Shown: positions 25,791 through 54,343, counted from the first letter of the stretch. The stretch is 64,000 bases of DNA from Rhizaria sp. SCN 62-66 (GCA_001724265.1 MEDY01000188.1:1-64000), one strand, 5' to 3'. Program-made: numbers and translations. Notes: generated by a model from the sequence alone, not told the origin.

Positions 25791-28700
25791 ATGAGGGATT
25801 ATGGCCCAGATTTGCCTCCACGGTCTATAGAACTAAACGATCGTCTTGCCAACATCCTTAGCGGAGTCAACTCGCTTGTTGTATCGGAGGTTTCTCTCTA
25901 CAGCACTGCTCAGAATCGTGCTGAGTCGAACCCTACATCCGGACATGCATTCCAAAGCGTCAACTCAAGTCAAGCGCAACCAGCGACCGCATGTGACAGG
26001 CAAATCACGACGCGCGAAGTCATAACCGCGTGCGTTGAGCTCATGTGCGACGATTCCGCATCTCTAGCCCCACTCGCGCTCGTCTTCGCCAAAATCGTTC
26101 AGGTTTGTTCTCACTCCCCCTAATCACGGATTATCAAGATACATTGCACATCAACAAGCGTAACTCACTAGGCATGACTAATCAACTGTATTGTATAGGT
26201 TTTTCCGTCTGGTCACACGCTGAACACGTTTGCATCCGGCGTCCTGCACGATATGATGCAGCCCACTTCCATTGTGACAAGCAGTGCGAACGCAGGCGGT
26301 GCCGCACCGCCGTTGCGGTCTTACGATGCTAACGGCACGGTTGTGCGCTTGCCCGCGTTGTTTGGTAAACATTTTGCTCTCGGCACAGCCGCGCGGCACG
26401 CACCTGCTTCTGCGCGTAACACAGCTTCTGCTGGTTTTGCAGCTAATGATGCAGCGGTAACGCAAAGCTCCCACATAGAGGCGCGTACAAAGAGCGCGAG
26501 CAAAAACGCGCGCAAAGGTGCCCGAAACAGCAATAGTAGCAGTAGCAGTGCGCATTTGGCGCTGCGCGCTGCTGCGACACCGATGTTCCCCCAGTCAAGC
26601 TGCGGCGTCGACATCAGCGACGATGACAACGACGTTGACAATTTTAACGATCGTGGTGACGGAAATCAGTATCACAGTATCGCTTAGACGAACGGCGTCA
26701 CATACCATAGTCGCGGCCGCAGTGGTCGTCGTGCTGGCCGCGCTACGCGCAACCTGTGGTGGGATCATAGTCATGCACTCGCCGCGTGTCACGGGGCCGA
26801 CTTTGTCGCATCCTGCCTGAACATCTCGGCGGGCGCAGACACAGCGTGCGACTGCCGCAGCTACTGCGCGTGGGATGTGCGCCTTACTGCCAGCATTTTA
26901 GTGGACGCTATTGACTCGCGCGTCGAACCCAGCTCGCTCGAAGTCAAGCCGCCCTCACCCGAAGTCAAGCCTTCCGTGCTACTGGCGCTGGGCTGCGCCG
27001 TCTCGCTTGCGGTCAGCGCGGTGCTGGCTGCCGGCACCGACTGCACCAACCCGCCGTCCCCGTTTGCGGCCAACGCGTTTGCTGCCAACACGATTGCCGC
27101 AGCACGCGCAGTCGCGAAGTCGATCGACACACTCACACATGACAAGGATCAACAAACAGTGACGTGTCGTGACTGTGAGCACTGGCAAGGCTGGACACGC
27201 AATAGCTCTTTTAGCGCAGTCACAAGCAACAGCTTGACTAACAGCATGGAACTTCGTACGGCTTGCGCTGTACCCTCTGGAACGTATCACCCTGCCCTGC
27301 GCAAGCCCTGTCTGTCCGCCCACCCCCTGCAGCCGTGCATGTTGCTGCTCGCAGTCGCCGCTACCCAGGCGCAGGTCTTTCCGGAGCGCCTCCCGACGTA
27401 CTTACACAGGCTATGGCGGCCCTTAGACGTGATCGCACGGCACGCTGCTGTTGCACCGGCGTGCCGTGCGCACTGGGGACAGCCTTGCATACAACTGCAG
27501 TCGCGGTCACAAGCGCTCTCGCACTCGTAGACACAGCTACAACCATGCCCTGCACGCTGCTGTGGCTGCTGCCACTCGGCAAGAGGCGCCGAGCACGGTG
27601 ACCAGCCGGGCTTCCGCGTCCGGCCCAGCGACCTCTCTTTGCTGCTGCTTTGCTCGCGGTCCTGGCCTCCCGCCGCCGCGGCCGCGCTGATGGCAGTGCT
27701 AGCGAACGCGCCCGCCGCGGTCTGGTTGCCACCACCGTCGCAGGCGCACGTCGTGGGCTCCGCAGCCGTGGCGCGCGCGGCCGCGATGGCCGGGTCTGCG
27801 GTAGACACGCTCGCGGGCACCGTGGTCTCCGCCGTCGCCGCCGGGGCCGAGGCGCACGGAAGCGCCGTGGCCTCGCCCAAGGACAGGTTTCTGTCACGGG
27901 AGGCGAACCGCGAGTATGTGACGCTGGTGGCGTCCCTTGCGGCGCCAGCGGCCGGTGCAACGAACACGACGGCGTCAGTCAGCAGTAAGATGCACCTGTT
28001 TCAGGAGGATGAGGAGGAGGACAATCGCTGTTCTAACGCCAATGGGACGCACTTCTGCTGTGGCGCGCCGCCCGTGAAAGGTGAGTTACTGAATGGGCTT
28101 CATAACAACAGCAATGTGAATGTTACAGCACATTCTGCACTGAACAACAACGCGAAGAAGAATGGTCAACAAGGCCGGACGTCAGTGCCTGCTAATGCTC
28201 CAGTTGCGTGGCACACGATTGCGCCTTCTTTCTCGACGACGCTGCTCGTTGCTAAGCTGCTGACCGTTGCATCTTCTTTACATCACTCTCTTGCAGCAGC
28301 GCGCCTAGGCAGTGGCTCTTTGTCCGTTGATGTAGAAAGCTGGCGCAGCCTCACTTTCCGAGAGGCACTCTCGCTGATCTGGCCTCTACCTGATACAGTC
28401 CCTTTTGGACGACAGCATTTGTCGCAGCAGTCTGTTGGCAGCTCTCCGATTTTTACGACGCTGTTAACAAGGCAATCAAAGGAAGAGTACCTCTTGTCGC
28501 TCCAGGCAAAACTTGGCCAGCAACAACATCTGAACACTGACTGTGACAAGGAGCGGTTGTCCAGTAGTGTTTCTAACAGCAACGACCGCGAGTCTCAGTC
28601 GCTGTTTTTGCTCCACGCACGTGGCCTCGTGCCCGCTGCGGACGCGGCGTCGGTAGCCCACGCGCTGATGTGCGCGCTGCCACCGCTGCACGCGCAGGCG

Positions 28701-31700
28701 CGCGCCGTCCAGGCCCGCCGTACGCTGCTGTGGGCGCATGGTGTCGTCTCAGCCGTGGCGATCGCAGCGCCGGTATCGCTGGGCAGCGCCGCCGCCCAAA
28801 TGAATCGTGAGCGAAACGTGGCAGATGATGGTGTCTTCTCTCGCTTGAACTCAGCATCAGCATCCGCGGAATTGTCTAGGGCCAGTGCAAGCGCAAGCCG
28901 TGTGGCGACGCCCGCGCCGACGCCCGCGGCGTCCCCACACTGCCTGCTCGTGCTGGCCGCGCGCGCCGCGCTGTCTGTGTTCGCGGAGCCGCCTCTGCTG
29001 CAGCGTGGCGAGCTGGCCTACCTCGCAGAATGCGTTCCCAGCCTCGCGCTGCCAGTCGCCCCCGCGCTGCGGCTAGCTTTTGCGGCGATGTACGGCGCGA
29101 CGACCGAGCTCAAGAGCAAGAACGGAGCCAATGTGATCTTGCAAACGCCGGAATCCGCGAATAACGTATTTGCTGAGTCGGTTCTGGGTGCGAAGACGCT
29201 CACTGCCAGCGAGTTGGTGATGGTGGCTTTGCTTGGCGGCGCAAATGAATATGCGCATTATCCGCAGTCGTTGCTTACGGTCGCAACCGCGGTGCTTTCC
29301 CAACATAGCCTTAACTTACAAAATAGCGGTAATGCGAAGACGCATAACTCGTTGGCATTGTTGCCGTCTCTTGTGACGTCGTTCCAATCGCTCCCAGCTC
29401 CACACATTGTCGTGCCAGTTCTGTTACGTTTGGCCTTGAATCTCATTGAAGCCACGCCTGCGCTTGCGTCGGCCGCGGCAACGCGTGCGCCGACCGTTCG
29501 GTACAGGCAACAGGCGCAAATGCAGACACATCCTGACTCGCATCCGTTTCGCAGCGTGCAGGCGCAGTAGTATACCCAGTCGCCGGTCAGCACACTGCAC
29601 CATGCAGGTGCCGAGCTCTTGACTGTGTTGCTCGTTCATGTGCCTGGCGCGGGGTCCACTGTCCTGAACCACGTGCTGTGCGGCGTGACTGGCATGCCGC
29701 GCGCGCTGCTGCTCTCCAACAACATCAATACCGACTGCATGGTGGGTCTGAGCAATAGCGGCGCATCAAATAGCAACGGGTCTATCGAGCACGAATACGA
29801 CATGTCAATCCCTGGCCATCTGTCCCCATCAGATCTAAGTATCCCCTTAAACGCCACGAGCTCGCACGTGTACCGCGGGCTAGCGCTGCCACGCCCCGCC
29901 GGTCTCTCGCAGCCGCCGAGCGACGTGGCCAGCGTGGAGACATACGCGGACGAGATCATCAAGCTTTCTGGAGTGCTGGGGGAAACAGGCGCAAATATCA
30001 CCGGTGCGACGGCAGCGCAGGATGTGACTGGCAATTCAAGTCGTCATGGCAAGCGTGAGGCGTCGCAGCGGGACTTGGCTGACGACAACGTGCACGATGT
30101 CACCAACACTAACGATGAGCATAACCTCAGTGATCGCGACGGCTTCCTTCTCACGGTCACGCACTTAGACTTTGGTCACTGGGAAACTGCCCCCCTCGCG
30201 CACCTCGCGCTCGCTGGTCCCCGCGTTCTGGCATTGTTCGGCGCGCTGACGCTCGCACCACATGCGCTCACCGTGTCGCTCAACGCTCATTTGTATTATC
30301 ACTATATGTCACTTGTACCATGGTCAGTGCCGGTTCCTGCTCCACTCAACCCTTCAATCGCACACAACCAGGCTATCAGCACGTTTTTACAGACGACGGC
30401 AGCCAAGCAACTACTTAACAGCCCTGGCTCTCAGCAACACGAACAGCTGGCTGTAAGCGCGTGCCTCCCTCGCTGGCTTGGAATGCCCACGTTTGCTACA
30501 ATGCGCGGTTTAGTGTTCAACGACGACGCGAGCTACCTGCGCTATGCGATTCTGTCTTTTGCTCAGCAGCAGCAGAAGCAGTCGCAGAATGCGCGTCTTG
30601 CATCCACCCAGACTGCATCGGCGTCCAGTATCGCGTCGCCTCTTACGGCCACCGCGCCAGTGCGCAAGAAGATCGGTCGGCCGCGCCGCGTGGGAGTGCC
30701 GACTCTTGCCGAAGCAGACAGCGAGCCGTCTGCTGACGCACAAGCGCAGTCTGCGAGCAGCGCATCCACAGCAGCACCATCTGCTGCGTCTGTCTCAGCT
30801 GTCGCCCTGGTCTCAGCGACAGCGGCCGCAAACACCCCTGCGGCGGTTGCGTCAATGACCGTGGGCACGAACAAGCCAGTTTCGGAGGCGGCCCAGCGCT
30901 CGCTCCGCTACTCGCTGCTTCTTCGCGCCTGGGCTGGCGTTGCTGTGAATGCCGATGTTGTGGAAGAGGATTCTGTGCATGGTCGTCGTAGCTTCGATGA
31001 GTACTCACGCTTCGGCTCTCCTGCGGCTCGTGCAGTGTTGGTTGCGCACTCGCATCAGCTTTTAGCCTTCACTGCAGACCTTACATTGCTTCCCTGGGGC
31101 CGTGCCGCTGCGCTGGCTGCCGCGACCGCCGCTGTGGGTGCCACTGCAGTGCCCATGCTTGGCGACAAGCTGGCCATGATGGCGCGAAAGCTCAGCGTCG
31201 CGCGCGGTGGTAAAGAACGCGCGATTGCTGCCTTGCTTGCTGTGCTGCTGCATAAGCACCGCGCGACCGACTCTGTGCGCGCACTCACTGCGAACGCGTG
31301 CAATTTGACGCAGCAGCCGCAGCAACAGCAAAGGATGCAATGGGGCCCGGGTGGGGCTGCAGTGCCCTTGGGCGATGCTGTGTTGATTTCTGCACTGACG
31401 CAAGATGCCCGGACTAAGGCTCTTGTTCTGCTTCTGATGAACTGTGAAACTTCGTCTCCTCTCGTGCTTTCGCGACAGCAGTCGCTGGTTGCGGCCCAGC
31501 GGCAAAAGGCGCTGCAGCTTCACGTCGGCTCGCTAAAACAGCAACAAACGCGTGCCATGTCCGCGCACGCGGCGCGTGCTCTTTTGCAAGCGCTTCCCTC
31601 GCTTGCGGCGCTTGTGTCTGCACATCTGGAACGTGACCTTTCATATGAAAGGGCATCACGCGGTTCCGTGCGTTTGCACGCACTAAGCTCCGCGGCATCC

Positions 31701-34700
31701 GTGTTCGTCTCCAAATTTGCAGGCGAGTTCTCTCAGTGTTTTGAGACCTTGTCGATGACATCTGGAGACCATAGTCGAGCGACCGCGTTGGCTTTGTCTG
31801 TTGCGGAGTTAGCTGCACGCACAGGTGGTCATACTCTTGCATCGTTAAGTACCTTTACGCGACCCTTACATCCGTGGGGACTTCTCGTCGCAACGATCGC
31901 ACGCGCCCTGTGCGACGAATCGCATTTCGGCTCAACGCAAACGCGTTGTGATACGACTCTCACCACATGTGCTGTCATTATTGGCGCTCTTTCTGGCGTG
32001 CTCACATTACCAGAAATACTTGCCTCGGCTCTGGTTCAAAGCCCGAACGATAGCACTCTGCCTGTCTATCACAGTGTTCTCGCGCGTGCACAGGCAATAT
32101 CGCAGCTGAGTCTTGCGCTGTGCTCAGGCATCGAGAGCGTCACTGATGTAGTGTTACGCCAATCGATTTTGACTACCGCTGGCGCTGTCACAAGCAATCA
32201 TGGTGCCGGAACGGCTCATGAAAATGATCAAATGTGTGACTTACAAAGCCAGCTCCCGCTAACATTAGTTGAGGTCTCAACTCTCACGGCTATTGTTGGC
32301 ACCGCAGACGCATCTGCATCTTATATTGCCGCGATCACTCCATCTCCGACATCAAAGAATGCTATTAGCACCGTCACTGAAGGCGACAACGAGGGCAGCG
32401 GCGACGACTTAGGCGACGGTGATGGCGAGGATACCCCGTGTCCCAGCGTACTGGCCTCTGCGCAGCCCGGCGCGGCGGTGGCGGCCAAGGATCGCCGGCT
32501 GGCTGCAGTGCGTGCGACAGAGTGGTCGCGGTCACCAGCGGTAGCCCCAGCAGCGGCGCCGGCAACAGCTCTCTGCTCATTCGCCGTTGCAGTCTCGCTA
32601 CTTGAGCGCTATATTGACTCAATCTCAATCAGTTCGCCGTCGGTCGGAGCGATGGATGAATCAGTACAGAGCATAGTGGGTTCGCGCGTTGTGACGCTCA
32701 GCCCAGCAGCCCTTCTCACGGTTGTGAACGTTGTCATGGCGCACGTTTCACAAGCGGTAAGCTCGGGCTTCACACTCGATAGTCGCACGAATAGTGATTC
32801 AAGCAACGGAGATGCAGCGGTGCAGATTGCCCTTCGTGTGGTGCCAATTGCACTGTCACTCCTAATCGTGCTTGTGCCAGCCCAGGACAAGAGCGCCGAT
32901 ATGTTTGTCACATCAGGCACCCCAACGAGCTATTCATCCGGCTCAAGCGCAAGCTTAAGTGAGAGTGCGAGTGCGAGCTCAGGCGCTTCTGTGGACAACA
33001 ACTGGAAGAGCCTCGACGATTGTGAGAGCCTTGTTCCGGCGCCTACCGTGACAGATTACGTCTGTAGGCACTTCTCACGCGCAGCGGTTGACTCCATCAC
33101 CAATAGGTCGCAGCCCCTAGCAGACCTCGTCACAAAGAGCAAGCAGTTCCAAAGCAGTGCCGGGCTTCTCTCTCAAGCGCACCAAAGGTGGGCAGCCGCG
33201 TTCGCTGCCGACTTATTCCCGCAAAAGTTAAAGGAGGCCTTCTCGCCGTACCGCCCCTCCCCGCTCGTGGCGCAAAGCGCACCGTCGGCCGCTTCCCAAA
33301 TTGCTGCGACAACGGAAGCGACTCTCATTCTCCAGGACTGTCGCCTAGCTGCCCTTGCTCTCATCACGCCGCTGTGGCCCCTCCTTGCGGCCGCAGCGCA
33401 GCGCGCCGCAGTCACCGCTGCCGTTACCACGCTCTCGCGACGCCTGCATCCGCAGCTCGCCGCTGCCGTTCGCTCTGCGATCGCGCCTCCGTCCGCTCCG
33501 TCCATGTCAGATGGCGGCGCCGGCGACGGCAGCGGCTGCTTGGAGACGTCGACTGCGCTCGCGGCGCTGCTGCTGGTGATGCTGCGGGCCGAGTGTCAGG
33601 CTGCTGCAGCTCCCGGCGGCGCAGTGTACCAGCTCGTTCTCAGCGCATACCTAGAGGCTGCGCTCGCTTTGACGCCGAGCAAGATAAGTCAGAAACAACA
33701 GGACGCGGACTTGAATGTTGATAAGAGTGCGTGTGCATACCGAGCTGTGCAGCCTTGGCGGCTGGCAGCGCTGTACAATACGTTGCCAGAGCTTGCGGCA
33801 GCTGCACTGTTGCCTCTCCCCGAAGCAGCACGCGGTATTGCGAAAACGACAATCCCGATTTTGCGTTCGGTGGTACTCATGACCGCGTCTGCGATGGCGA
33901 GTTATAGCAAGGAATCAGGCAACTTACCCCACTTGAACAGCTCGGTTCATTTGTCGGAAACGAGTCGCGCCATGCTCGACGTTGTTGAACTTGACACTGA
34001 AGATCGTACTTATGCTCACGTCAATCGCATGAAAGGCCAAATGCAGACGACGAATCAGCGCACTGAATTCCACACTGCGCTATTCGAGCTCGACTGGGCT
34101 CGGAGTGTGATCTCACATTTACTTATGCTTCCTGCTCCACAACTGCAGCACCAGACGCAAGATAGAAGCATTGGATCTGCCCGCTTGCTTGGATCTAACG
34201 GCTCATCGGCAACCGTGTTGCCTTCAGGTGCGGCGCTGGCACTTGTATCGCCTGAGGTCGCTGTTTTTCAACGTCTTGGACCGCAGAAGCAGGAAGACAT
34301 GTGGAGGCTCAAGGAGAAAGTGCGCGATCTAGAGCTTGCCGCTGCGTCTAAAGGGCCTCGTCGTGGTGCCAGTGCCATGGGCAAGTGGGCGAGCAGGAAA
34401 CGAAGTCTGGACAGTGCGCGTGCTGCTGACCGCAGTGGTACAAACGGCACTGATGACGAGGCGTTAGAAGAAGGTGAGTCGGACGAATCCGACGCAAGTA
34501 TTAGTATCAACAGTGGTAGTGATCTCAATACTGATGATGACAACTCAGACGATGATTTGGAGCTGCAGCCCCAAGAGCAGCAGCGACCAGGCGTTAGTGA
34601 TGATCAGTCTCGACTGGCATCGTTTTTTGGCTTACCAGTATCTTCTTTCGCGAAGGACAAAGCAAAGTACAAGAACAAGAATACCGAAATGCGTGTGATC

Positions 34701-37700
34701 GTGCCACAAAACACTGCTGTTAACGATCTTAACATCATCAATGAAACGGCGGCTATCAAGGTTGTTAGCGGTGATTCTGAGGCGAAGACCAACAGTTCTG
34801 CGTCAGCCAATATCTCATCTGCGGCTACGCTAGTCCCTGTCAGCAAGAAACCGCGCATGATTGCTCCGAAGTTAGTCGCTCCTGTGAGCACAGCATGCAA
34901 CAACGAAAACACGACGCGTGACGGCAATAGCAACAACAGCGAGCCCAAAAACTATGAATCTCACGGTGAAGATGACTTCTTCATTTCTCTCTTAACTCGC
35001 ACGCAAGCAACTGGAACCATATCCAGCAATTGCGACATTAAGATAAAGATTGAACTGCTGAGTGCGGACGAGTCCACTTCCGCGCAAATTCTGGCCAAAC
35101 AGCTGCACCAACGGGGACAAGGAAAGACTCTTGTGACGCTTAATCCTGCAAATACCAATTGCGCCCTGTCTCAGTACCTTCAGTCGCTGCCGCTTGCAGC
35201 GCGCACGCATCCAATCACGTCTACCTTAAGCACGCTTGAGACGCACGCGGACGCGCTTGCCAAGCGCACGGCCCTTGCGCTATCCGCAGCCGTGCCCTCC
35301 CCTTTGCAAGCACAGGTGCAAATGCCTCTCTGTGCCGCAGCTCTGTCCACTGCACTTGTGGCGCTGCTTGAACCGTTCCTATGGGCGGCTGCGGCACGCG
35401 CCCGCTGCTACACCGGTGTGCGCACCGTCACCGGGCTGCGCGCGCGCGTGGCTGCGCTGGTGGCGACCGCAAAAGCGAAGCGGGAACGTAAGGACCAGGT
35501 TCGCGCGTGTCGTCAGTGGCTAGAAGAGATTGGGTATGGTCGCGGTGATTTGGGATCTAATCGCGGGCGTGCCGGGGCGAATGCTGCGCAGATTGGTGTC
35601 AAGGGCAGTGTGCGAGGGCGCCGAAAGGGCTTTAGGGTTCAGGTCCGCAACGCTGCGATCTCTGTTGGCACCCAGGCCGCTGGAGACACGGGCAAGCTCT
35701 CTGGCGCAGCCGCGGTCTCCCGAGCGCAAACTATGGGGCTCAAGGTGGCGACGCTGTACCGGCCGATGGGAATCAGCGCTGCGGCGGCGGCCGAGGCGCG
35801 GGCCCGCCTCGCCGCGCGGCTCTGCACGTTCACCGCCGCGGACTCGGTCGAGATGCTGTATTTGGCGGAGCCCTGGCGGTCGACGGCGCTGCCACACTCG
35901 ACGCTGCTTAACACAATATTCCCGTCACTTATGGCGGCCTTCAGCGCGGCTGTGACCGCACTGGCGCGCGCGATGCCTCTCGCCACATCAAGTCACGCCG
36001 TAGCTGCCGACGCAGGTGCCGAGAGCGACACCGCTTTTGTGCCCGGCGCGGCGCGACTAGCTTCAGTCGTCATCGGCGGTCTGTCGCTGTTGCTGCCGAC
36101 GGTGATCCCAGTTCTTGTCGACGGCGACGGCGCCGCGGGGGCGCGATTCCGGTTGCAAGCCAAGTACGTGAGGCCGCTGGCAGAACTGAAACGCGTCGTG
36201 AATGAGCTGTCGCAAGCCGTCTCCACTGCGATCTCCGTTGCGGCGGCGTCGAGGGCGGCGGCAAGTAACGCGTCAGACGTAAAGCATAAGAGCAGTTCAA
36301 GCTCGATAGCAGCTTGGACGGACTCGGCACAATCGGCAGCGCTGTCTGCGACCGTTCCAGCGCCTTCAGTCGCGAGTACACACACAGCAGGCGTTACAGC
36401 AGCAGCATCAGGGTCTACTGCGTCTTTGTTTGGGTCAGCTCAGCTTGCGGCAGCGTTGCGCGCCGTCACAGCTGTCGCCGACTCAACCAAAACCAGTACA
36501 AACGCAGGGATCGGTCGACGGCGCGCCGGGCGCCCGCGCAAAGACGCGCCCCGTGGCCACGGCAACGACAGCGAGGTTGATGATGTGGACTTGGTCGGCA
36601 ACAACGGTCCTGCCAACGGCGACCTGACTGGTTTTTCTGAAGCTGCGAAATCTAGCAACGTCTTGTGTTGTCTCAACATTGGCAACACTTTGTGTAGCCA
36701 CGATCTCTGTTTGCACCACAGTGATGATGTGCGTGCGCCGCATGATTTCACCAGTTCCGCCGCGAACAGCCAGTCCCATACGACCGTTTCTGCTACGACT
36801 TCGAGCCAACCACAGCCCGTTCAAAGCCTCTCCCGCGCCGCTTACAGTCATCTCGCGATCGCCTCTGCACTCTCGGCCCCGTTGCCGCTCCCGCAGTGCG
36901 CGTCGCTGCAGTCTCTGCAGCCCCTGTTGGAGCAGCTCTCGGCGGACATTGGCGACGCGTTCACCGCCGTGCTGGCGGTAGCCGACACGTTCGCCGTCGA
37001 TGTGACGATGATGCGGCGAACCGCCATCCTGGTGGGGCTGCCGATCCCGCCCGTCTTTGAGGACTCCGACTCCGACTCCGACTCGGAGGCGGAGGCGGAG
37101 GCTGAAGCTGAGGAGGTGGACGACGACGGAGACGATGGCCGTGCGGCGAGAATCTGTCCTCTCAACCGTCCTAAAAGCTAGCAAGCGAAATCGGAGGCCA
37201 AGAAGGTTCGGCCCGCGCCTGTGGCAACGGCAGCAGCTGCCGCTGCGACTAATGGTGCAACTACTGCCTCTGTTGCGGACATCATGGCCGCTGTCGCAGC
37301 AACAACAACGAATGCAGCCGCAGCCCCCTCCGTGCGCCCTCAGCAACGCCACCTACCTGTGGCCGGTATAGACCCCCGGACGATGGCGATGGCGGTTGCC
37401 GCGGCAGCGAAGGCAGCCAGCGCAGCTGCGACTTCGTTAACGCGTCCGCAGCAACCATTACATCAGACATCAACAGCCGCTACGGCAGTAACACTCGCTG
37501 CAGCAGCAGCGGAAGCAGCAGCATCAGCAGCATCAGCGGCGAAGGCTGTGGCACAATCGAATGTTGCCGCGGAAGCCGCCAAGGAGGCTGCCGCTGAGGC
37601 CGCCGCCGAGGCCGCTGCTGAGGCCGCATACCGCAGCTCTGTCACCTCCACGGGCACCGGCGGCGGTCGTTCTGGCGCGCTCTTGGCGAGTGCAGGCGCT

Positions 37701-38090
37701 GGCGTGGTCAAAACGACCGGCGGCACCGCGTTGCCGACACGCAGTCTAAACCGCGTGGTCGATCGATGGCTGCAGGAGGACCAGGGCGCCGAGCCCGGCG
37801 GGGAGGCGGGGGGCGGCGGCCGCGCAGGCAGGCGCGGCGCATATTATGATGATGACGAGAACGATGATGGTGGCAGTGATGCTGTTGATGGGTATGGAAG
37901 GATGGGACGGGGTACTGAGTTTATTGACCGTATCCGCGGGTTTGTGCCTGGATCTGTGCGCGGTGGACGTGCAGGTGGGCGACAGCAGCGGCAGCATCCG
38001 CACCAGCAGCAGTCAGGGGCCGGTGAAGACGCGTTCCTAGACTTGGCTGATTTTGTGGTTGAGGACGATGATGACGATGATACCCGCTAA
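25791..38090 (+). CDS. Giant (~4,070 aa) Ala/Leu/Ser-rich protein of unknown function, probably nuclear, 4 in-frame TAG codons
   Basis: join(25791..26102,26199..38090). Intron 26103-26198 (GTTTGT...GACTAAT...ATAG). A short first exon 25705-25718 with intron 25719-25780 (GTACGC) is possible. The 11.9-kb exon is one frame with no TAA/TGA until the final TAA, interrupted only by TAG at 26685, 27528, 29568 and 37179. GRP AT-hook-like motifs and acidic tracts are present. Confidence 0.75.
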
Positions 38091-38527
38091 TATATGCGCT
38101 ACGCGCAATAATATCACTGAACGATACGATGTTCTGCTGTTTTTTGAATATTATACTACTTTGTACATGTATATATAGCCGTTTAATACAAATTACAGTT
38201 GATTTCCTTTTGAACGACCACCCCAGAGTGAGTCTCACCACAAACGCCAAGAAATCAAGCCGCACCAGATCTGTGGCAGGACAAATCTGGTCTTTGGCTC
38301 TTTTTTCACGATAAAACAGATGATCAATACGACCGCTTTTGGGGATGCACTTAGTATAATTGTATTGTTTGTGCTTGTTAGTACTAGCACTCATTTAAGC
38401 AAACGTCGATAGTTTTGTTTATTGATGTCATATCTTCGAAACCAAAACTGACCACACTTCGCGTTTCGCGCTGTCGCACGCCGCTATTTGCTGCCCCCCA
38501 TGTTACTTGTTCTAGACTATCGCAGAG

Positions 38528-41500
38528 ATGTCGTCGTTAAACACGCACCACTGCGATGATGTTAACGCCCTCGAGGCTATTGTCTTCGCCGACGACCGTC
38601 GTGCGGCGATTGACGCCACCTTCCTCCCGAACTCCAGTACGTCATCTCACACGCCCTCTCAACACATATCAAGCATTGTCTCTCATTTAAAGCGGTATGA
38701 AAGATTGTAATATGACGATGTGGACATTAACCGGAAATCGACCTTCATCTAAACAACATCTCATGGTCTGTTGTCGTCTTTTTTGTTGTCGTTTTCCTCC
38801 TTGTTCTCGCGCACAGCGGAGAATCTCTTCCACAAGGCCCTGGTGGAGCAGATCGAGTCCCAGGAGCAGGGCAAGTACTCGTCCACAGCCTACGCCGCCT
38901 ATGACGCCTACATCCACTCCCAGTACAACCAGAACAGCTCACCCGCGCTGTCGATGGCGTTCCGCGCCGCGATGCTCCAGTTCGCCTCCGCCTCGGACGC
39001 GCGCCGCACGGAGATCATCACCGACTTCTTTGCCGCCATGTGCAGCTGGCACCACTCTAAGGCCTCGACCAAGCCCACCGCGGACGGCTCCGCGGCCGCC
39101 GCGCGCCCCTTTACGCCGGGTGAGAACGTCTTCAGCTGGCACAAGAACATCAAGGAGTACCTTAAGGAGCGCGTCGCGCGGCCCGACAACACCAGCCTCG
39201 GCCTGCGCCAGACCGCGCTGCCGTACCTGCTCGACAACCACGCGAGCATCCCCGACCACCGCGTCAACGACGTCCTCGACAACTTCATGGTACGTGCAAT
39301 TACTGTGTTCACAAAAGCAACCCTCCGATCACACCCAAGTCATCCTCTTGATAGATCTTTGTATCACATCACCTTCTTGTTCTTTGCTTTTTAACTGTAG
39401 CGCCGCACGAACTTCGCCGCGCACCCCGGTGTCGTGTCGCTGGTTGCCCGCTCGCTCAAGTGGGTTAACCCCAAGCGCACCAACGACAGCGAGCGCGGCT
39501 TTGGCCGCTGCAACATCGACTCCCTGCTGACCGCGGACCAGCTCGCTGCCGTCGCTAAGGCCGTGTCCCGCGTCAAGACGGAGAAGTCCTTCATCGGCCG
39601 CGAGTTTGTCACCCAGTTTGGCTCCGACCCGCGCCCCGCGGCGTGCGTCAGCGCCGAGGAGCGGCTCGCTCTGCTCACGCGCATCTTCGCCTTCGCCACT
39701 GAGGTTGGCAAGCGCAGCTCCTCGGCCTCGTGCGGTGAAGTGGCGTCGACGCTCATGTGCTGGTGCATGCACTCGCTGCTCGAGTGCGACGGCAAGTACA
39801 ACTTCGCGTGGTTCAACGCCTGGATTACGCTCAACCACGCCGGTTACGCGCCATTCGTCTCGAGCGCGGCCAAGAGGAAGAGCTCCAACCCTATCTACCC
39901 CACCAACTTTGAGTCCATTCCCCGCCCCGATTTCAGCGTACGTTCTTGCCATCTGGTTTATTCAACACGCAACCACGTATTTCTCATACTAGCTCTCTGA
40001 AATGATAACTTCTTTCGTTGTCGCCCACAATCACGTATCTTCACTCATGTGCATTTTTTGCTTCTGCATCTCCTCACCCGCAGGACGTGACGGAGCCTTA
40101 CCTGATCGAGTACTACCGCCAGCCTGGCAACGACAAGTTCACGCCGACGTCGCTGGGCGCGTACGCCGGCACGCTCGATACCGACGCGCTCGAGACGGCG
40201 CTGTACAAGGCGCGCGCCTACTACCCGCCCGTCGACCCCGTGACGTACAAGTCGCTCCAGCCGCTCCCTTCCTGGGTCACCGACAAGATCAAGGTGCGTT
40301 GGTCTGCATGCTTGCTAAGATCATCAATGTGTATTGGGAGATAGAATTCCGCAAGAACTCTTTATTCGAAATGTAAAAATCCTCTTAAAGAAGCAAAAAA
40401 GCAAATTCTTAATATCCTAACGATTTTTTCTGGATCATTGTTTTCCCCCCACTTCACAGCATGGCTACGCCTACGGCATCTCGACGACCGCGACGGAGCT
40501 GACCTGGGCGCCGCACAACGCGTCTCTGGGCTCGACTCCCGAGGCCGTGGCGGCGCCGGTCACTCTGCACGCCGTGATCAAGAACGTGCCCACGGTCACC
40601 CTCAAGGTCTACCGCATCAACACCACAGCCTACTACACTACGCACAACAAGGAGGTCGACGCCAAGATTGAGCTCGACGGCCTGATCCCGCACGAGACGC
40701 TGACCTTCGACCTCTCTGCCGCGGCTTCGCTCACTCGCGTCGAGAAGACCTTCACGCTTGACTCGCTGCGCGGCCAGCGCGGCGTCTTCGTCATCGAGCT
40801 CGAGGGCAACGGCCAGGCCACGCGCGCCGTGGTGCGCAAGGGCCTGCTGACCTTCTTGGAGCACTCGACGGCGGTGGGCCACGCCTTCGCCGTGTTCAAC
40901 GAGGCCCGCGAGCAGGTCAAGGACGCCCGCATCACCATGGGCTCCCGCACCTTCACGCCCGATGCCAGCAGCGGGTTCATCATCGTGCCGTACAACGACA
41001 CGCGCGTCAACGACCGCTCCATCGTCATCACCTCCGACTCGGCCGCCAAGCTTTCCTCGTCCTCCTCAGCCAGTGCCAGCGCCAGCGCCAGCTCGAGCAC
41101 GCTGGCGGGCGCCAGCGTGGGTGAGTCCTTCTCTTGCCTGGGCAAGTTCACGCACATGTCCGAGCAGTACTCGCTCGAGGGCGGCTTCGTGCTCTCCCGC
41201 GAGGCACTGCGCTCGCGCGCCGTGGCCGAGGTCGTCGTGCGCCCCATCTTCCGCCGCAACGGCCACGCGCTGCCCACGGGCACCACGCTCAACACCAAGG
41301 ACGTGCGGCTCACGGTCAACGCGACTGACGCGGACGGCGTCAACACCACGCAGGTTGTCGAGGGCTTCGCGCTGCCCGGCAGCGACTGCGAGGCCACGCA
41401 CGCTTTCTCCGTCCCCGCGGGGCTAGCGTCGCTGACGTTCCGCCTCGACGTGACCGTGGTGTCGGCGCGCGGCACCGAGAGCGTGCTCTCGCTCAACAGC

Positions 41501-44500
41501 GACGCCGTCACCGTCAACACGATCGAGCGCAACGAGTTCAGCATCCGCCAGCTCTTCCTGCGCCGCGACACTGCCAGCACGGCGCACGTGGTCAACGCCG
41601 ACAACGCGGCCGGCGAGGGACTCGTCGCCGTGCTAGTCGGCAAGGGCGGCGAGCCGCTGTCGCTGCAGGAGATCACGATCACCGCGCGCCACCGCTTCAT
41701 CGAGGACCAGGTCACGCGCACGCTGCGCACCGACGCGGAGGGCCGCGTCTACATCGGCTCGCTGGGCGACATCTGCTCCGTCACGGCCACGTGCGCCGTC
41801 TCGGGCTGCTACGCCACCTACAGCGTCAGCAACGAGCTCGCCGCCAACGTGGTCCGGGAGATCCGCGCCGAGGTGGGCGCCGCCGTGCGCGTGCCCTACC
41901 TCGGCGCCGAGACCGCGCTCACGCCCGCTGCCTTCTCGCTGCTGCGGCTGGGCAAGGCGAGCCCGGGCGTTTACACGCAGTGCGAGCTGCGCTGCGCGTC
42001 GCTCGACACGGTCACCGGCCACATTGTGCTCAACAACCTGACCGAGGGTGAGTACGAGCTGTCGTACGTCGACACGGCCGCGGGCGACAACGGCGGCGAC
42101 GCTATTATCCGCCACAACATCCGCGTTTTCCCGGCCAACCAGCGCGTCATGGGCTCGTACGTGCTGGCCGACAACGCCTTTCACCAGCTTCAGCGCGACC
42201 TTGCCACGGACCTCACCGTGGGCGCCATCACGGGCTCCGCCGTCGCCACGGGTAACACCACCGCCGGCGCCGTGGCCGCCGCGGACAGCACCGTGGTCAT
42301 CCAGGTCGGTGCGTTGAGTAAGGACACGCGTGTCCACGTGTTCTCGTCGCATTTCCTGCCCTCCGAAAGTGAGGTTGCGGCGCTGGTGCCCAACCAGCCC
42401 GACAACGCGCGCTCGCTGCCGCTGCCCAGCGTCGAGCACGACTACCTCACGCAGCGCCAGCTGTCTGGCGAGCAGCAGTACGTGCTCGACCGTAAGCGCG
42501 CCGCCAAGCGCGTCGGCAACATGCTCACGCGGCCCACGCTGCTCCTCGCCAAGCGCTTTAAGCAGGCGACGCAGATGGACAAGGACACGACGATGCGCAA
42601 GGCGGGCGAGACAAGCGTCATGTCCAAGAAGAAGGCCACTGTGAGCAGCGTCTCTGCTTCCAACTCGGCGTTCGAGTCGGACTCGCGCCGCGAGCGCAGC
42701 TCTCGTGGCGGCTACGGCGGCGGCAGCCGGCGCAACCGGTACAGCACCGACTCCGACAAGGGCGACCGTGCGTACCACTCGCTCGAGTTCCTCAAGGAGA
42801 GCTCCACGCGCCTGTTCAACCTGAAGCCCGACGCCGAGGGCCGCGTGACCGTGGCGCGCTCGGCGCTGGGTGCGCACCACACCACGCTCACGGTCATCGC
42901 CGTCGACGGCGTCGCCGCCTTCACCAAGTCGGCGACGCTCCTGCCGCTCGCCGCGGCGGCCGCGACGGCGTCAGTGAGCGCGGGCTGCGTCGACGTGCGC
43001 ATGCCCGCCGCGCTGAACCTCAACAAGCACTACACACAGCAGCACCTCGTCACGCCGCTGCCCGCCGCAGGCGCCACGTTGCCCATCTCGGACGTGCGCT
43101 CCGCGCGCATCGAGGTGTTCTCGTCGCTGGGCGAGCTGTGGGAGCTGTTCCAGACGCTCGACGTGAACCGCAACGAGGCGCTGCTGGCCAAGTTCTCCTG
43201 GCTCCCCCGCTGGGGTTCACTGTCGCGCGCGGAGAAGGAGGACAAGTTCAACGAGTTCGTGTCGCACGAGCTTAACTTCTTCATCTACTGCAAGGACGCC
43301 GCCTTCTTCAACGACGTGGTCAAGCCGCACATCCGTCACCGCCACCGCAAGACCGTGGTGGACCTGTACCTGCTCGGCGGCGGCGCGCGTGCCTCGCTGA
43401 CGGCGCGGTACGCGACCGCGGCGTCGTTCCAGTCGCTCAACGCGTTCGAGCGCGTGCTGGTGGCGCACGCGGCGGGCCCTGCGGCGCTGCAGGCCGTCGC
43501 GGGCGTTCTCAGCGACGGCGCGCCCGTGCGCGACCTGGAGGTGTACACGCAGACGTTCATGAGTGCGATGCAGTCGCGCGCGCTGGCGCTGGGGCAGAGC
43601 ACGACGGAGCAGCTCCAGGCCGAGGCCAAGAAGCGCGCGCGCAAGAACAAGAAGGACAAGGACGGCGACGCCGACGGCGCCGAGGGCGGCGCCGACGACA
43701 ACGGCAGTGACGGCGGCAGCGGCGACGACGACGACTTGGATATGGACCGCTGTGATGAGAGCGAGAGTGAAGTCAGTGCGCTCTACGACGAGTGTGAGAA
43801 GGAGTGTGAAGAGGAGGCCGACTACTCCCGCAGTAAGAGCAAGAAGATGTCGGCACCGTCGGCTTTCGCACCCTCGAAGCCCTCGTCGATGGCGGGATTT
43901 GGTGGCGCCGGATCCGGATTCGGTCGCGCCCCGCCGCCGCCGCCGCCCTGCCCGGCCCCCGGCGGTGCCATGCTGATGCGCTGTGCCGTACGTCTCCTAA
44001 CCGCAAATCACGTTTGAAACACATGACATGTATTTTTTGTTATATCTGTTTATTAATGATCCTCTTTATTGACTTGGGTGTTCCCACACCACTCATTTTC
44101 CGTGCTAACTGTGATCTCTCTGTTCCGTTCTGTTTTTTTCTGCTACACTCATAGGCCCCGATGCCGATGATGGCCGCCATGTCCTGCGCGGACAGCCTCG
44201 CCCCGCAGATGCAGCTCAGCGCATCGGCGGCCCCGCGCATGATGTCTATGCGCGCGGCGGAGCCCGAGAGCTTCGAGTCGAAGGCCGAGAAGGCTGCGGC
44301 GGCCGCCGACAACAAGCCGCGCGCGCTCTTCACCGCGCCCGAGACGACAGGCGAATATGAGGAGCGCGAGTACTACGCCATTGAGTCCTCCACCGCGGGC
44401 GCCACCGCCACCAAGAGCCTCGTACCGCAGACGCAGTTCTGGTCCGAGTGGGCCGCGCACCTCGCCGCCACCGCCGCCGCCACCGCCGCGGGCGCGGACG

Positions 44501-47293
44501 CGGGCGCGGTGAAGCCGTTCTTGTCGTCGCACGTGCTGTCGGTGGCCAACGTGTCCTTCACGCACCTCGTCCTCGCCTTCGCAGTGACGGACCTGCCCGC
44601 CACGGCGCCGCAGGGCAACGCGTCGAGCCACTTCAAGCTGTCGTCGAGCGGCAAGGCAGAGCTAGTGGCACCGGCGCCGATGCTGGTGCTGCACGAGGAG
44701 GTCCGCGAGACGCGCGCGGCGGGCGCCGGTGAGAGCGGCGGCATCGCCGTCACGCAAGTGTACTTCGACCCGCTATCGCAGCGCGTTGAGGGTGGCGAAG
44801 TCAAGGAGAAGTACGTCGACAGCGAGATGCTGCCGCAGCGGCCCTACGGCTGCCGAGTCGTCGTTACCAACGCTACGGCCAAGACGCAGAAGTGCTCGCT
44901 GCTGCTGCAGATCCCCGTCGGCGCCATCCCGCTCAACCTGGGCGGCAACGGCCGCGGCGTCAGCGTCACCAACGCGCTGAGCTGCTTCCGCACCAAGACC
45001 CAGTTCACGTCGGTGCGCGCGTACCACACCTACGTCGCCGAGTACTTTTTCTACTTCCCCGCAGTGGGCTCCTTCGGGCACTACCCCGTTCAGGTGTCGC
45101 AGACCGAGGGCCAGGCCACCGTCGTCATCGGCTCCGGCTCGCCCACCACGCTCTCGGTCGTCGCGGTGCTCTCCGCGCCGCCCGACGCCAAGTCTTGGCA
45201 CTTCATTTCGCAGGTACGCATTGGACTCAACACGACTACATCAACTATTATTACGCGAAACAACCGTATGTCAAGCAATATGCTTCTATTTTGTTATGAT
45301 CAAACCCATCACTCACCGTTATCTTGTTTTACACTTTTCCTCTCCGTTTAGGACGGCTCCGAGGACGACGTCATCGCCTACGTCTCCGACCCCGCGAACA
45401 ACATCCACAAGAACGTGGACCCGGTTATGGCGGCTTTCCGCTGCCGCGGTAACCCGGCGTTCCTGGTCCGCTACACCGACGCCCTGCGCGCGCGCAGCTA
45501 CTACCACGACGACATCTGGGGCTACACCATCTACGCCATCCGCGAGGTACGATATCTGTCTTCCGCATATATTCATAGATCGCATTCGCAAACATATAAA
45601 CCTGATATTCAATTGTTTAGAAATTACTTCATTGCTTCATTGTTGTTGTTTTTCTTACCTCATCACCTTTGTTGATGTTTAGGCTAAGGGCTCGATCAAG
45701 TCGCTGGAGATCCACAAGCTCCTGGGCGAGTGGATGGCGTCCCCGCGCGTGCTGGGCTCGGAGAGCTCGGCGTGCCAGCGCGCGGGGCCGTACCTCGTGG
45801 TGCCGGGTTTCACGCGCGACGCCCACGCGCCGCACATCAACCAGTACCAGCACCTCGAATATCTGCCGCTGATCAACGCGCGCGCGCACGAGGTCACCGC
45901 GGCCGCGCCCGAAGCGAGCACCGACGACTACTTATATGGCTCGCTGAGGCTCCTGCCGCCTCCGGCCCAGACGGCGCCCGGCGCTGCGCTCTCGCGGTCC
46001 AAGATCCAGAACAAGCAGTTCCGCGCCCAGTACCTGCGCTTCATGCAGTACCTGGCATACTCGAGCTCGCGCCGCGACAAGATCGCCACGGGACACCTCA
46101 TCTCGGCCGTCTACTACATGCTGCTGCAGGACCGCGTCCCCGAGGCCAAGAAGCTCTTCGCGCTGCTTGACGCGCGCCGCACCGCCGCCAACGCCGCCAG
46201 TGCAGCGCCAGTGTCCCCGGCCAGCAGTAGCGGTGGCAACAGCGTCGAGATGCAGCTCGACTACCTCACGGCCTACTTCGACTTCTTCTCGCTCGCTCTG
46301 GGCGGCCCCACCGACGCGGCCGCGCTCCGCACCGGCGCCGCGCGTGCCGTGGCCATCGCGGACAAGTACGCCGCCTACCCCGTGCGTTTCTGGCGCAAGC
46401 TCTTCGCCGAGGTCAAGGCGCACGTCGGCGAGGCGCTCGAGACGGTCACTGCGGCCGCTGAGGCCGAGAACGCGGCCTTCGCGATGATCGACGCCGACGG
46501 CAACGCGGCGCCGGCCGCGGCGGGCCCCGCCGGCGAGGCCGCGGCGGCCGCGCTCGCGTCTGGCGCGCTGCTCGAGGGCAACAAGGGCGCCGAAGACCGC
46601 GCGATTAACCGCGAGAAGGAGCTGGCCGCGCTGGCCTCGACCGAGCCCCAGCTCGAGTTCACGGTCGAGAAGGCCGCGGGCGCCGCGCCTGGGGCCGCGC
46701 CCGTGCTGAAGCTGGTGCACGCCAACGTGGCGTCGTGCGTGGTGAGTTTCCACCTCATGGACCTGGAGGCGCTCTTCTCGGCCAACCCGTTCATCTCGGG
46801 CGAGACTGACAAGTTCGCGCTGGTGGCGCCCAACCACGCCTTCGAGGTCGACCTCACGGGTGCGGTGCCCTCGGCCGAGCACGGCTTCCACGGCGTCACG
46901 ATCGTGCCCGTGCCGGCCAAGTTCGCGACGGCCAACGTGCACATCCAGGTGACGGCGGCGACGCTGCCGCGCGCGCGCTCGGCGACCCACTACGCTCACT
47001 CGCTGCTCGTCCAGGTCGTCGACGCCTTCGGCCAGGTCAAGGTCTCGGCCGCCAAGGGCGAGGGCGCGGCGCGCGTCTACGGCCCGCTGCCTGGCGCCTA
47101 CGTCAAGTGCTTCGCTAAGCTCAAGACTGGCGTGGTGGACTTCTACAAGGACGGCTACACCGACCTGCGTGGCCGCTTCGACTTCGCGTCACTGTCGACC
47201 GACAAGCTCAAGAGCGTCGAGCGCTTCGCCATCCTTGTCGTCGGGGATGAGTTCGGCGCCTGCGTCAAGGAGGCCGCGCCCCCCAGCAAGTAA
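38528..47293 (+). CDS. Large (~2,573 aa) conserved protein resembling Dictyostelium AbpF and large bacterial hypothetical proteins, 8 exons
   Basis: join(38528..38636,38817..39289,39401..39937,40084..40293,40460..43987,44155..45213,45352..45546,45683..47293). All 7 introns are GT(A/G)CG...AG and restore the frame; stop is TAA. Motifs SHELNFFIYCKD, HLEYLPLINARAH, YYMLLQDR and YVKCFAK...FYKDGYTDLRGRFDFASL. The family assignment is from memory of these motifs. Confidence 0.7.
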
Positions 47294-50383: not shown

Positions 50384-50485
50384 AGTGAGTGTGCTGCGAA
50401 GCGTTCGAAACGACGGAAAGATGGAAAGTTCGTGGTGCCCGTCCGTATGTAAGGCTGCATGAGTCCGTGAAGGGAGTGTGGGCTC

Positions 50486-50529: not shown

Positions 50530-51158
50530 CGACATATGATGGTCAGGCACGCGTATATATGACTGGTTTGCGTGTTTTTGTGGCTGACAAACAGCGTCAA
50601 ATCTTGTATTTTCGCAATACAAAATGTTTATTAGTGCATATCAGTGTTACGGCGACTCCCGGATGTGAAACTGACTAATATGCGGCCGAGTCATGGCAAC
50701 CACGAAAGAAAATATTGCTGGTGAAAAAACACTCATTTAAACATTTGAATCGCTTGTTATTTTTTTTAGTTTTGATATTTTGCTAATTTCACTAACTATT
50801 TTTTCAATGGTGTACCTCACGGACTTTCCAACGCAAGTGACGTGTTACTTCAAGATCGCTTGGGGGTTGAAGTGAAGGCTGGTGATTCTAGAATTGAGTG
50901 CGATCAAGGAAAAAATAATGTTTAATCAACTCTATAAGTTATATCCTCGCTTCTTGTGCTTTGATGGAAATTGACAATGCGAACGGTTACGCACGTGCTC
51001 GAATAACGTAACAGGAAGCTCTTCGTAGATATGCGATAATCGCGGGAAGCACATAATTTTAAACATGTACTATGCATGCTGTGGTACTGTTTCAATCTTA
51101 AGTTGTGATGTTCTCGCTGAGACACATGTTGCAGTACCGAAAATCCAGTCTATTCACC

Positions 51159-51641
51159 ATGATTGATCGCAAGTCAGGTCTCGACGACAACCTCCGCGCA
51201 CGCGGCCGCTTCGCCAGGGACGGCCGCCTGTGCGTGAACAACATGCGGAATCCAGATATCAAGCAACAAGTTGCGTAGCTGTACGCGCAGAAGCGGCTTT
51301 ACGGCGAGGGCCCGGAGACGAGGGCGTGCCTAGTCACCGTGCGCAACGCTCAAGTAGAGATTGACTTTGAGTTCGTCAATGAGTCGACCACGTTTCCCGC
51401 TGGCACTGGCACTGGCGCTGGCGATGGCAGCAATGGTGACGACGCTATCGGCGGTTGGTTAAGCCTCCCAGCAGTCAGGGAGCCGATCGGCGACGTGAAT
51501 GTGGAGGAGATGGATGAAATACGTCACCAGCGCTCACACGATCAGGTCGAACCCAATCGTCACACAAAACTATTGAACAATATAATCGACACCGTATCGG
51601 TCTCAGTAGTGCTGCAGCTGCCGGCTTCACTGTGCGCTTGA
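51159..51641 (+). CDS. Small hypothetical protein (~160 aa) with one in-frame TAG
   Basis: CACC-ATG at 51159 opens a GC-rich, coding-like frame that continues through TAG 51276-51278 (DIKQQVA*LYAQKRLY) into track ORF 51339-51641, ending TGA. It may be a gene fragment. Confidence 0.45.
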
Positions 51642-54343
51642 AAGCACGAGATCACGGCTGCGTCAAAGGGCTCGTCGCCACAGTCCCGTTCAATCGGGCC
51701 AGCATCCTGCGGGCTACACGACACCACGCGGCCGACGGGCACGGCGCCGCGCAGCAGACTGGTCGGGCACGGCTTGAACACGATGAACCACGGCGTGTCG
51801 AACTGCCCTATCTCGCAATGGACGTCACTCTTGCCACAGAGCACGCTGCGCGGGTACATAAGCACCGTGCCGACCGGGTAGAGTGCCTCTTCCGTTGTGT
51901 CCTCTGATGCCGGATCTGCTGTTGGAAGGTTATATTCGCCGAAAATGATATCCGACTCTGGCAGCGCAATCGGGGACGTGAAACAGGGAGCGACTGAGGA
52001 GGGGTGATACAACGTGGCGAAAGGCAACGAGGCCGTCGCAGACTGTCCGCAGGGCACGAAACACCGGTGTACGAGCGTGCCGAGCGTCGGCAGCCTCCCC
52101 TCCTCGGAGACGGCGGCAAGGCGGAAGTGCGCGGCGTGACTGGGAAACTTCTCGTCGTTGAGACGTAGCACCACCCAGTACTCATCATGACGATGAGTTT
52201 GCGCATTGTAGAAACTCGCCTCCATTATAATGTCAGATAACATGAAGTTGGCTGCGAGCCGATCGCGTTGAGAGCCCGCCACGCGCTCCCGCGCCCGCGC
52301 CTGCAGCACCGCCAGCGCCGCCGCCGTCGGCGTGTAAAGCGGCCGCGCAGGCGCAGGGAGCACGCGCCACGAATCGAGGGCGGTAAGCCGCGTGACGCGT
52401 CGCGGGTAACCACACTCAGCCTCCAGGCGCCACGCCGTGAGCGCGTTGAGCGCCTCGATCCAGCCGCCGCGGTACTGGCGCGTGATTGCGCCGACCTCCG
52501 CCGCCGTCCGCTTGCGCTGCGCAGCGGCCTCCGCAGTCTCAGGGGCGGCCGGGCTGAGCGCGGTCGTGCCCTCAAGCAGCGCGCGCAGCCGCGTGAGCTC
52601 CTGCAGCGCGGTGTTGTCGTCCTGCTGTGTGAATTCGGCATAGCGCAGCAGCTCGATCGCCTGCAGGCCGCGGCACGAGATGAATGTCCACACGAAGCGG
52701 TTGCGCGGCTCTTCGTCGAAACCATTCTCGTCGTCAGGCGCAGCACTGGCAGCAACGGCAGCAGCGGCAGCGGCAGCCTTGGGATCTGGCATAGTGTCAT
52801 CGGCCGACATCAGCAGGCGTAGCACGCGCATCAGACGCACGATCGCATCATCACCTGGAGCAGTCGCACTCTGACTCTGGCGCTAATTCTGCGTCTGCAC
52901 CGGGACGACATCAATGCTGTTAGATTGCCCGCTCCAGAGCGACGCAGCGTGCAACAAATACGTTAAACACTGCACAACGCCACTGTGAAGCAGATGTCGT
53001 GCCACATTACGTAATGCACGATTATTACCAGCATCACCAGCATCACCGTCGTCGGCAGCAGCAAACTCAGGAAGCATGGACTCAAAAAGACGCGCCGCAT
53101 TCTGCAAGAGAGCAGAACGCTCGGCAAGGTGCAGTCTGCTGTAGGAATTTTCAATGCCGATGGAAATCAACGCGAGATTGTCCGACAATGAAAGTTGCTG
53201 CTGCGCAAAGGCGGGGAAGCGCCGCGCCAGCCGTGTGAACACATCAACGAGCGGCACAACGAGTGTCCGGGGCAGTTCCTGGATGTCTGCGTCAAGGATT
53301 GCGCGCACCAGCGACAGGCGCAGGGGCGTGAAAATGCGCTCGACGGTAGCGTCGTCGCAGTCCTCATCAAGAGCGGCGACGCACCGCTGGAGGAGGCTGA
53401 GGGGAGGGAACGGTTTCTGCTCGTCCCAACGGTCCGTGTACGTGGGGATGTCTCGCAACACAGTGTCGAATTCTTCGCTAAGCGTGAACTGCACAATGGC
53501 GTCAACATGCGCCGCGTCACCACCGTCGTGAGAGCTGCAGGAGCGGAACAGGGCTTGGAGCGCAGCGCACAACGATTCGCGGATTCGGTGATGAGACTCG
53601 TCTTCAACACAGGCACGAGAGAGCTCAGCATGCAGCAGCGGCACGTAAGACGCAATTGCAGCATATGGTGGGGGCAGGCCGTGGAAGCACAGAGCCGCGA
53701 CAGCGTTGAAAAATGTATCGCGAAGCATCATGGACAAGAGCTCGTTATCAAATGCTGCGACAGACTGCTCCATGCGCATACAGGCGAGCACGTCGGACAA
53801 CGCAGAGTGCCGGACAGCATCGGTAATAAGCGGAGATACAGATGCAGCGGTCACGAGCAGAAGGGTCCCTATCATCGCATGCTGAAATGTGGAAGCATCG
53901 GTGTCGCTGCTATCGGCGTTATGGCGCGCCGCTTCTTTCTTGATGTTGATCATCATGCCACAGCGGATAACCAGCGCACCAGCGCGCGTGACGGCGTCAT
54001 TCAGAGCCGCCACAGTAAATGCGTTTGCTTTGATGGCAGAATCACCATGAGTGACAAACTTTGGTAACTCCTTGTCAGCAATTGTCCTAAGAAAAAAGGT
54101 TACGAAGCTGAGGTTGCGTGCTGACTCATAATCGTCATTGTAAATGCCAAGGAGCTGAACAAGCAGGCAAACAATCTCGCTGTCCAACAAGATGTTGAAA
54201 GTCATGGGCTCTGCCTCGGTGCAGCAGTTATTAATGGCGGCCTCAAGCTCGGAGAAGTGAGAACTGAGATTTGACGGCGCGAGGCTGCAGACCTTGCCTA
54301 ACGCAGTGTGGAGAAAAGTGAGGAGATCAGAATTTGATTCCAT
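51560..54343 (-). CDS. Divergent importin-alpha-like ARM-repeat protein with a C-terminal degenerate cyclophilin-like domain (~927 aa), one in-frame TAG
   Basis: ATG at 54343 (MESNSDLL). Track ORFs 52883-54412 and 51560-52840 are in the same frame, separated only by TAG 52883-52885. ARM-like segments LRDTFFNAVAALCFHGLPPPY..YVPLLHAEL..IRESLCAALQALF and NRFVWTFISCRGLQAIELL. Cyclophilin-like segment at ~51640-52180. Stop TGA. Confidence 0.7.

Follow-up and report, generated by a model that had tools for sequence, protein, structure and literature searches.

Recurrent in-frame UAG codons in a nuclear contig of an uncultured wastewater eukaryote: evidence for a rare sense codon, probably glutamine

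Nuclear genetic codes in which UAG alone has been reassigned are known from a handful of lineages, and each further case is an independent data point on the capture of stop codons. In the nuclear code of Iotanema spirale (Fornicata), UAG encodes glutamine while UAA and UGA serve as stops, as described in the sections of Panek et al. (2017, PMC5304391) cited here. The phyllopharyngean ciliates Hartmannula sinica and Trochilia petrani likewise read UAG as Gln and prefer UAA as stop, according to the parts of McGowan et al. (2024, PMC11687900) dealing with these species. In the relevant portions of the same two papers, UAG is assigned to leucine in the rhizarian exLh (Sainouroidea) and in three TARA ciliates (PMC5304391, PMC11687900). 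Here we describe a 64,000-nucleotide (nt) stretch of DNA deposited as Rhizaria sp. SCN 62-66 (GCA_001724265.1, MEDY01000188.1:1-64000), in the following called the window. This nuclear contig comes from an uncultured eukaryote of bioreactor and wastewater metagenomes. Nine in-frame TAGs are present in 16,892 modelled exon codons (~0.05% of codons), and the TAG-bearing frames contain neither TAA nor TGA. UAG is very probably decoded as a sense codon in this organism, or at least efficiently suppressed.

The window resembles the described I. spirale system in that UAG alone appears to be reassigned, is scarce in coding sequence and coexists with UAA as the dominant stop. For I. spirale a tRNA-Gln(CUA) derived from tRNA-Gln(CUG) was proposed, and the same mechanism is proposed here. 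The two cases differ in how the amino acid was assigned: in the account of I. spirale conserved alignments gave a conditional probability of ~1 for Gln, whereas context statistics are used here. The window organism is also set apart from I. spirale by its GC-rich, intron-bearing genome. With H. sinica and T. petrani, as characterized in the cited sections, it shares the reading of UAG only as Gln and the preference for UAA. The described code of exLh is comparable in its UAG-only reassignment with UAA and UGA as stops. In exLh, however, UAG is reported to be frequent (384 in 71 genes) and to occur in Leu columns, whereas TAG is rare in the window and does not have surroundings resembling those of Leu.

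The architecture of this contig, with a G+C content at third codon positions (GC3) of ~0.9, introns of 111–180 nt and giant Ala-rich proteins, is not known to be typical of ciliates. NCBI translation table 15, the Blepharisma nuclear code, reads TAG as Gln and retains TAA and TGA as stops; we take it as the most fitting formal code for the window. The code of table 15 is also reported to be used by crAss-like phages (PMC9523058). The phages and ciliates that use table 15 are unrelated to the window organism, and the table is meant as a formal description only.

The nine TAGs are distributed over a giant USP gene (two), an open reading frame (ORF) of 3,945 codons (four), a gene of 950 codons (one) and two weaker gene models (one each). 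The USP gene (2199..19207, + strand) has ~5,600 codons, comprises the exons 2199–6322 and 6493–19207 and ends with TAA. Its intron (6323–6492, 170 nt, GTACGT..CAG) is deduced from the splice sites and from the continuity of the frame in the sequence. By this putative intron the Gln/Ala-rich ORF of 1,374 codons at 2199–6322 is apparently joined to the USP ORF without a change of frame, so that both would form a single gene. A TAG at 6384 was considered as a gene terminator and was rejected, as it is located inside this intron. The first in-frame TAG of the USP gene is found at 7514..7516 (+, AYVL*LRE on translation), where the frame of the TAG has the highest codon likelihood on either side. 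The second one (10445..10447, +, TPLS*LTV) is positioned upstream of the UCH domain, which Pfam places at residues 2640–3223 of the read-through protein, 3′ of both TAGs. GC3 remains at 0.83–0.96 in one and the same frame in every 300-nt segment between 6601 and 19200, across both sites. ORFs ending at 7514 and at 10445 and the ORF restarting after 10445 are each recorded on four contigs.

The ORF of 3,945 codons (26253..38090, +) ends with TAA and belongs to no Pfam family. Contigs of a polyA RNA library (X6) match it at 30814–31184 and 31372–31720. Its four TAGs are situated at 26685..26687 (+, HSIA*TNG, near the 5′ end), 27528..27530 (+, QALSHS*TQLQP), 29568..29570 (+, VQAQ*YTQ) and 37179..37181 (+, PKS*QAK). 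For the TAGs at 26685, 29568 and 37179 the two flanks score highest in frame. Downstream of 27528 another frame scores slightly better, the sole such case among 18 flanks; the flanks of this TAG have a G+C content of 0.66–0.75, unlike the AT-rich introns. The TAG at 26685 counts as in-frame only with ATG 26253 as the true start.

The ARM-like gene of 950 codons (51560..54412, −) carries its TAG at 52883..52885 (−, VQTQN*RQSQS) in a variable linker. Its protein has 17 metagenomic homologues (P0009–P0025), which show 25–40% identity over the whole alignment, are encoded on contigs of up to 203 kb and align on both sides of the TAG. The C-termini of the homologues end near the same column as the TGA of this gene, a coincidence in favour of TGA as its true stop. 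A segment at 55477–55741 copies the 5′ end of the gene (54300–54582) with 79–93% identity.

Of the TAGs in weaker gene models, KQQVA*LYAQ (51276..51278, +) is part of an ORF of 160 codons (51159–51641), whose frame leads weakly in codon likelihood. This is a doubtful gene, as the ORF overlaps in antisense with the 3′ end of the 950-codon gene and has no Pfam match. The other one, NG*FQN (58065..58067, −), is codon 9 after ATG 58091 in an armadillo-like exon with a weak Arm/CTNNBL Pfam signal; the sequence upstream of this TAG is GC-rich and not intron-like. The exon (58091–57411, −) ends with TGA five bases before the ATG of an ORF in another frame (57402–56272). A 15-nt tandem duplication adjoins the frame break at 57400–57455 (−), for which a frameshift, an assembly indel or a pseudogene may be responsible. 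The first-pass annotation of the window had quoted the peptides around eight of the nine TAGs (7514, 10445, 27528, 29568, 37179, 51276, 52883 and 58065), all of which were recovered in frame by translation; the site at 26685 was absent from its list. Further apparent in-frame TAGs at 24861, 39398, 44152, 45349 and 45680 were discarded, as they are the 3′ ends of introns and not coding.

When TAG is read through, ORFs are merged in the same frame (401+977+2920, 680+2537+303 and 441+514 codons). Read-through of TAA or TGA merges antisense or shadow frames of GC-rich genes only, for example 2967–6410 (−). Codon likelihoods calculated for flanks of 100 codons rank the TAG-containing frame best of six in 17 of 18 cases. 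These per-site frame likelihoods replaced an initial codon-score scan with an all-frame background, in which sense and shadow frames were inseparable, as well as a simple GC-position rule, which recovered some of the sites only. All TAG flanks are GC-rich and no AT-rich spacer or intron-like sequence is present around the TAGs. Genes in the window end in TAA (7/9) or TGA (2/9) and in no case in TAG (0/9).

Identical sequence was found in other assemblies. A contig from another study (X4) covers 28925–30690 without any difference and spans the TAG at 29568. The same applies to an X7 contig (26545–26916), which spans the TAG at 26685, and over 1,799 nt, with the TAG at 10445 among them, the JGI contig L001 does not differ from the window either. 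Among the contig differences listed there is no variant at any TAG site, with 27528 and 37179 not belonging to the sites shown to be covered. Because identical sequence recurs in other assemblies and studies, the TAGs are not assembly errors. This recurrence, together with the otherwise open frames and the fact that TAG never forms a gene end, argues strongly that UAG is translated. The first-pass annotation had proposed that UAG is a rare codon for Gln. Strong support for its being a rare sense codon comes from ORF bridging, the continuous coding signal, the gene ends and the recurrence, while Gln is the best-supported meaning on the grounds of context statistics.

Most TAGs had been noted to lie in Gln-rich surroundings, and the excess is larger than expected by chance. 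There are 14 Gln residues within ±5 residues of the nine sites compared to 3.35 expected (P = 0.0004; 10,000 draws of random positions in the same proteins), the exceptions being 7514, 10445 and 26685. No enrichment is seen for Leu, Glu, Ser, Ala or Arg. If only the six most secure sites are considered, 10 Gln are observed and 2.24 expected (P = 0.002), and the ranking of the amino acids is unchanged. A naive-Bayes context classifier trained on the proteins encoded in the window ranks Gln first at all three context sizes, with 11.8 nats versus 4.4 for the runner-up at W = 5. In control runs it called Gln falsely in 76 of 3,800 sets and recovered true Gln in 66% of the true-Gln sets. The protein-matched probability of finding at least 14 neighbouring Gln is 0.066 around true Gln. 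It falls to 0.004 (Pro), 0.003 (His), 0.0022 (Lys), 0.00015 (Leu) and 0.00005 (Trp), and around Glu, Tyr or Ser this count was reached in 0 of 20,000 draws. The TAGs are followed by C (five), A (two) or T (two) but never by G. Gln codons are followed by C with a frequency of 0.41 and by G with 0.26, compared to 0.42 for G after codons in general. In its following base TAG resembles Gln codons more closely than codons in general. Provided that UAG is a sense codon, there is good reason to read it as Gln; the complete assignment, UAG as Gln with UAA and UGA as stops, is likely but held somewhat less firmly.

In the modelled exons TAG was counted nine times, CAG 467 times and CAA 120 times. TAG is denser in genes of low GC3 (6 in 5,055 codons) than in those of high GC3 (3 in 11,406 codons; P = 0.028). 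It behaves as a poorly decoded, non-preferred codon. In the mechanism we propose, UAG would be a third, rare Gln codon, one transition apart from CAG, and termination would occur at UAA, which is preferred, and at UGA. By precedent, UAG but not UAA would be read by a CUA-anticodon tRNA derived from tRNA-Gln(CUG). A tRNA(CUA) pairs with UAG and not with UAA and is one base away from tRNA-Gln(CUG), as outlined in the cited part of Panek et al. (PMC5304391). Weakened recognition of UAG by eRF1, also suggested by precedent, may contribute. Seven of the nine genes end in TAA despite a coding GC3 of ~0.9, i.e. contrary to the compositional bias.

Several points weigh against UAG as a Gln codon. Stop usage was judged from nine gene ends only, and two to three of the nine sites (51276, 58065 and 26685) are located in weak gene models. 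The sites at 7514, 10445 and 26685 have no Gln within ±5 residues. Moreover, C-to-T transitions of CAG in unconstrained Gln-rich linkers could yield the same context whatever TAG encodes. Because of this caveat and the three sites without neighbouring Gln, confidence in Gln was lowered. The rarity of TAG and its bias towards low-GC3 genes also fit inefficient suppression. In the alignments obtained no TAG site is in a conserved column, as the standard test requires. Neither ARAGORN nor Rfam detected a tRNA gene, and hence no tRNA(CUA), in the 64-kb window.

The first-pass annotation had noted that no site lies in a column conserved enough to decide by eye, and this holds for the alignments obtained. 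The column at 52883, in the variable linker, corresponds to a gap in 12 of the 17 homologues and to E, T, E, T and V in the remaining five. The USP region around the TAGs has no relatives in the collections searched. A word-based search with residues 290–1600 gave one match among 1,453 candidates, its own piece of 2,908 residues. An exhaustive phmmer search with residues 250–1449 against 1.84 billion representatives yielded three matches, all of them ORF pieces of the window itself, which end or begin at TAGs. Scanning metagenome contigs with the USP region revealed two loci, both identical to the window, and scans of genome contigs and viral contigs for relatives with a sense codon opposite TAG gave no match. 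A cluster look-up of the USP pieces found no longer variants. In the public protein collection the USP gene is represented by separate entries, with breaks at the TAGs where one piece ends and the next restarts. Gene calling with the standard code splits the genes of this organism at each TAG, and since genes are fragmented in this way, annotation of such metagenomic eukaryotes needs the right code.

If UAG is a sense codon it might specify another amino acid: Leu, the assignment in the rhizarian exLh and in some ciliates, or Glu, Lys, Tyr or Trp. Nuclear codes with UAG as Leu and with UAG as Glu do exist, as can be taken from the respective parts of the literature (PMC5304391, PMC11687900, PMC10553269). 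The USP sites AYVL*LRE and TPLS*LTV have hydrophobic surroundings with no Gln nearby, and the Gln context elsewhere may reflect the mutational origin of TAG from CAG and not its meaning. The context statistics nevertheless make these assignments rather unlikely. True Leu, Trp, Glu, Tyr and Ser sites in the same proteins give P ≤0.00015 for the observed Gln count, contexts of Leu, Glu, Tyr and Trp fall short of those of Gln in likelihood by a factor of 100 or more, and contexts of Lys, His and Pro by a factor of 12–30. In the classifier Leu scores ~10 nats below Gln. For UAG as Leu of the exLh type in particular, the surroundings of the TAGs are not Leu contexts; the probability of the observed Gln count at Leu sites (see above) refers to context only, not to conserved columns.

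UAG could also still be formally a stop codon that is read through by near-cognate tRNAs, owing to leaky termination or to an ambiguous, context-dependent code. The extreme rarity of TAG would be consistent with this, as would the lack of a tRNA(CUA) in the window. A C following the stop codon is a weak termination context in eukaryotes, and C is the next base in five of the nine TAGs and G in none. Compared to ordinary Gln codons, however, the following base shows no difference (no G, P = 0.065; C, P = 0.28). Furthermore, two to four serial read-throughs would be needed to obtain the USP catalytic domain or the protein of 3,945 residues, and not one of the nine gene ends in the window is a TAG. 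Read-through of a persisting stop is thus improbable compared to UAG as a Gln codon.

Least probable is an origin of the TAGs from nonsense mutation in genes under decay, from errors of assembly or sequencing, from gene boundaries or from short in-frame introns: although several TAG-bearing ORFs have no known family, the 3,945-codon ORF shows weak codon bias (GC3 0.62) and the ARM-like gene with the site at 58065 also has a frame break, the TAGs are identical in assemblies of other samples and studies, nothing intron-like or AT-rich surrounds them, thousands of codons follow them without an interruption of the frames, the USP catalytic domain is encoded 3′ of its TAGs, and random nonsense mutation creates TAG in ~65% of cases, so that nine TAGs out of nine have P ~0.02.

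Taken as a Gln codon, UAG in the window probably represents a known kind of code change in a new bearer, a GC-rich, intron-bearing and nearly orphan wastewater eukaryote. No report of such a wastewater eukaryote was found in the literature searched, a limited collection without supplementary files. Tentatively, and with slightly less than even confidence, the window may document a reassignment of UAG that is independent and unreported, in an orphan lineage of wastewater reactors, at an early stage of low usage (0.05% of codons) and in a strongly GC-biased genome that prefers UAA. If this is true, the case would argue against the idea that UAG is captured through a simple 'codon disappearance' under AT pressure. 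Ongoing competition between a suppressor tRNA and eRF1 could then be studied in a natural system, and the case would help to explain why UAA persists as the preferred stop.

The G+C content of the 64-kb window is 55–75%. Exons have a GC3 of ~0.9 and up to 0.98, and AT-rich spacers are found between the coding segments. According to Pfam the predicted proteins are eukaryotic and include ubiquitin C-terminal hydrolase, coronin/WD40, a ThiF-type E1 subunit, NopRA1/URB1 and a metallo-beta-lactamase fold. Matching sequence is present in runs from bioreactors, wastewater and activated sludge, of which four, belonging to three studies, contain 0.90–1.00 of the sampled words.

The sequence shows introns of canonical type, with GTACG at the donor and YAG at the acceptor site. 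Seven AT-rich GT..AG introns of 111–180 nt are spliced out in complementary DNA (cDNA) contigs of the runs X7 and X6. An intron-less, trypanosomatid-like organization of the window had been considered and was dropped when GT..AG introns were seen and then confirmed by the cDNA contigs. A control gene (38514..47293, +) has seven GT..AG introns with joints present in X7/X6 contigs, comprises 2,573 codons from its ATG and ends with TAA. The spliced control gene contains no in-frame stop of any kind before this TAA; the discarded TAGs at 39398, 44152, 45349 and 45680 belong to the ends of its introns. Here the cDNA contigs unite three to four apparently separate ORFs, to which no Pfam family corresponds. 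At 40589–40732 a contig of the polyA library (X6) shows 36 mismatches and 6 gaps relative to the window, all in the first ~150 nt near an exon start. An allele, a paralogue or an alternative 5′ exon may account for this divergence.

The SAE1-like protein of the window has a JGI homologue (P0006) with 57% identity, which is evidence that related organisms exist. In view of this protein and the 17 homologues of the ARM-like protein, a wider group of related eukaryotes is, judging from sequence, present in public metagenomes. Within the window itself, a segment at 54854–55429 copies the 3′ end of the URB1-like gene and the adjacent downstream region (58371–59110) with 84–98% identity.

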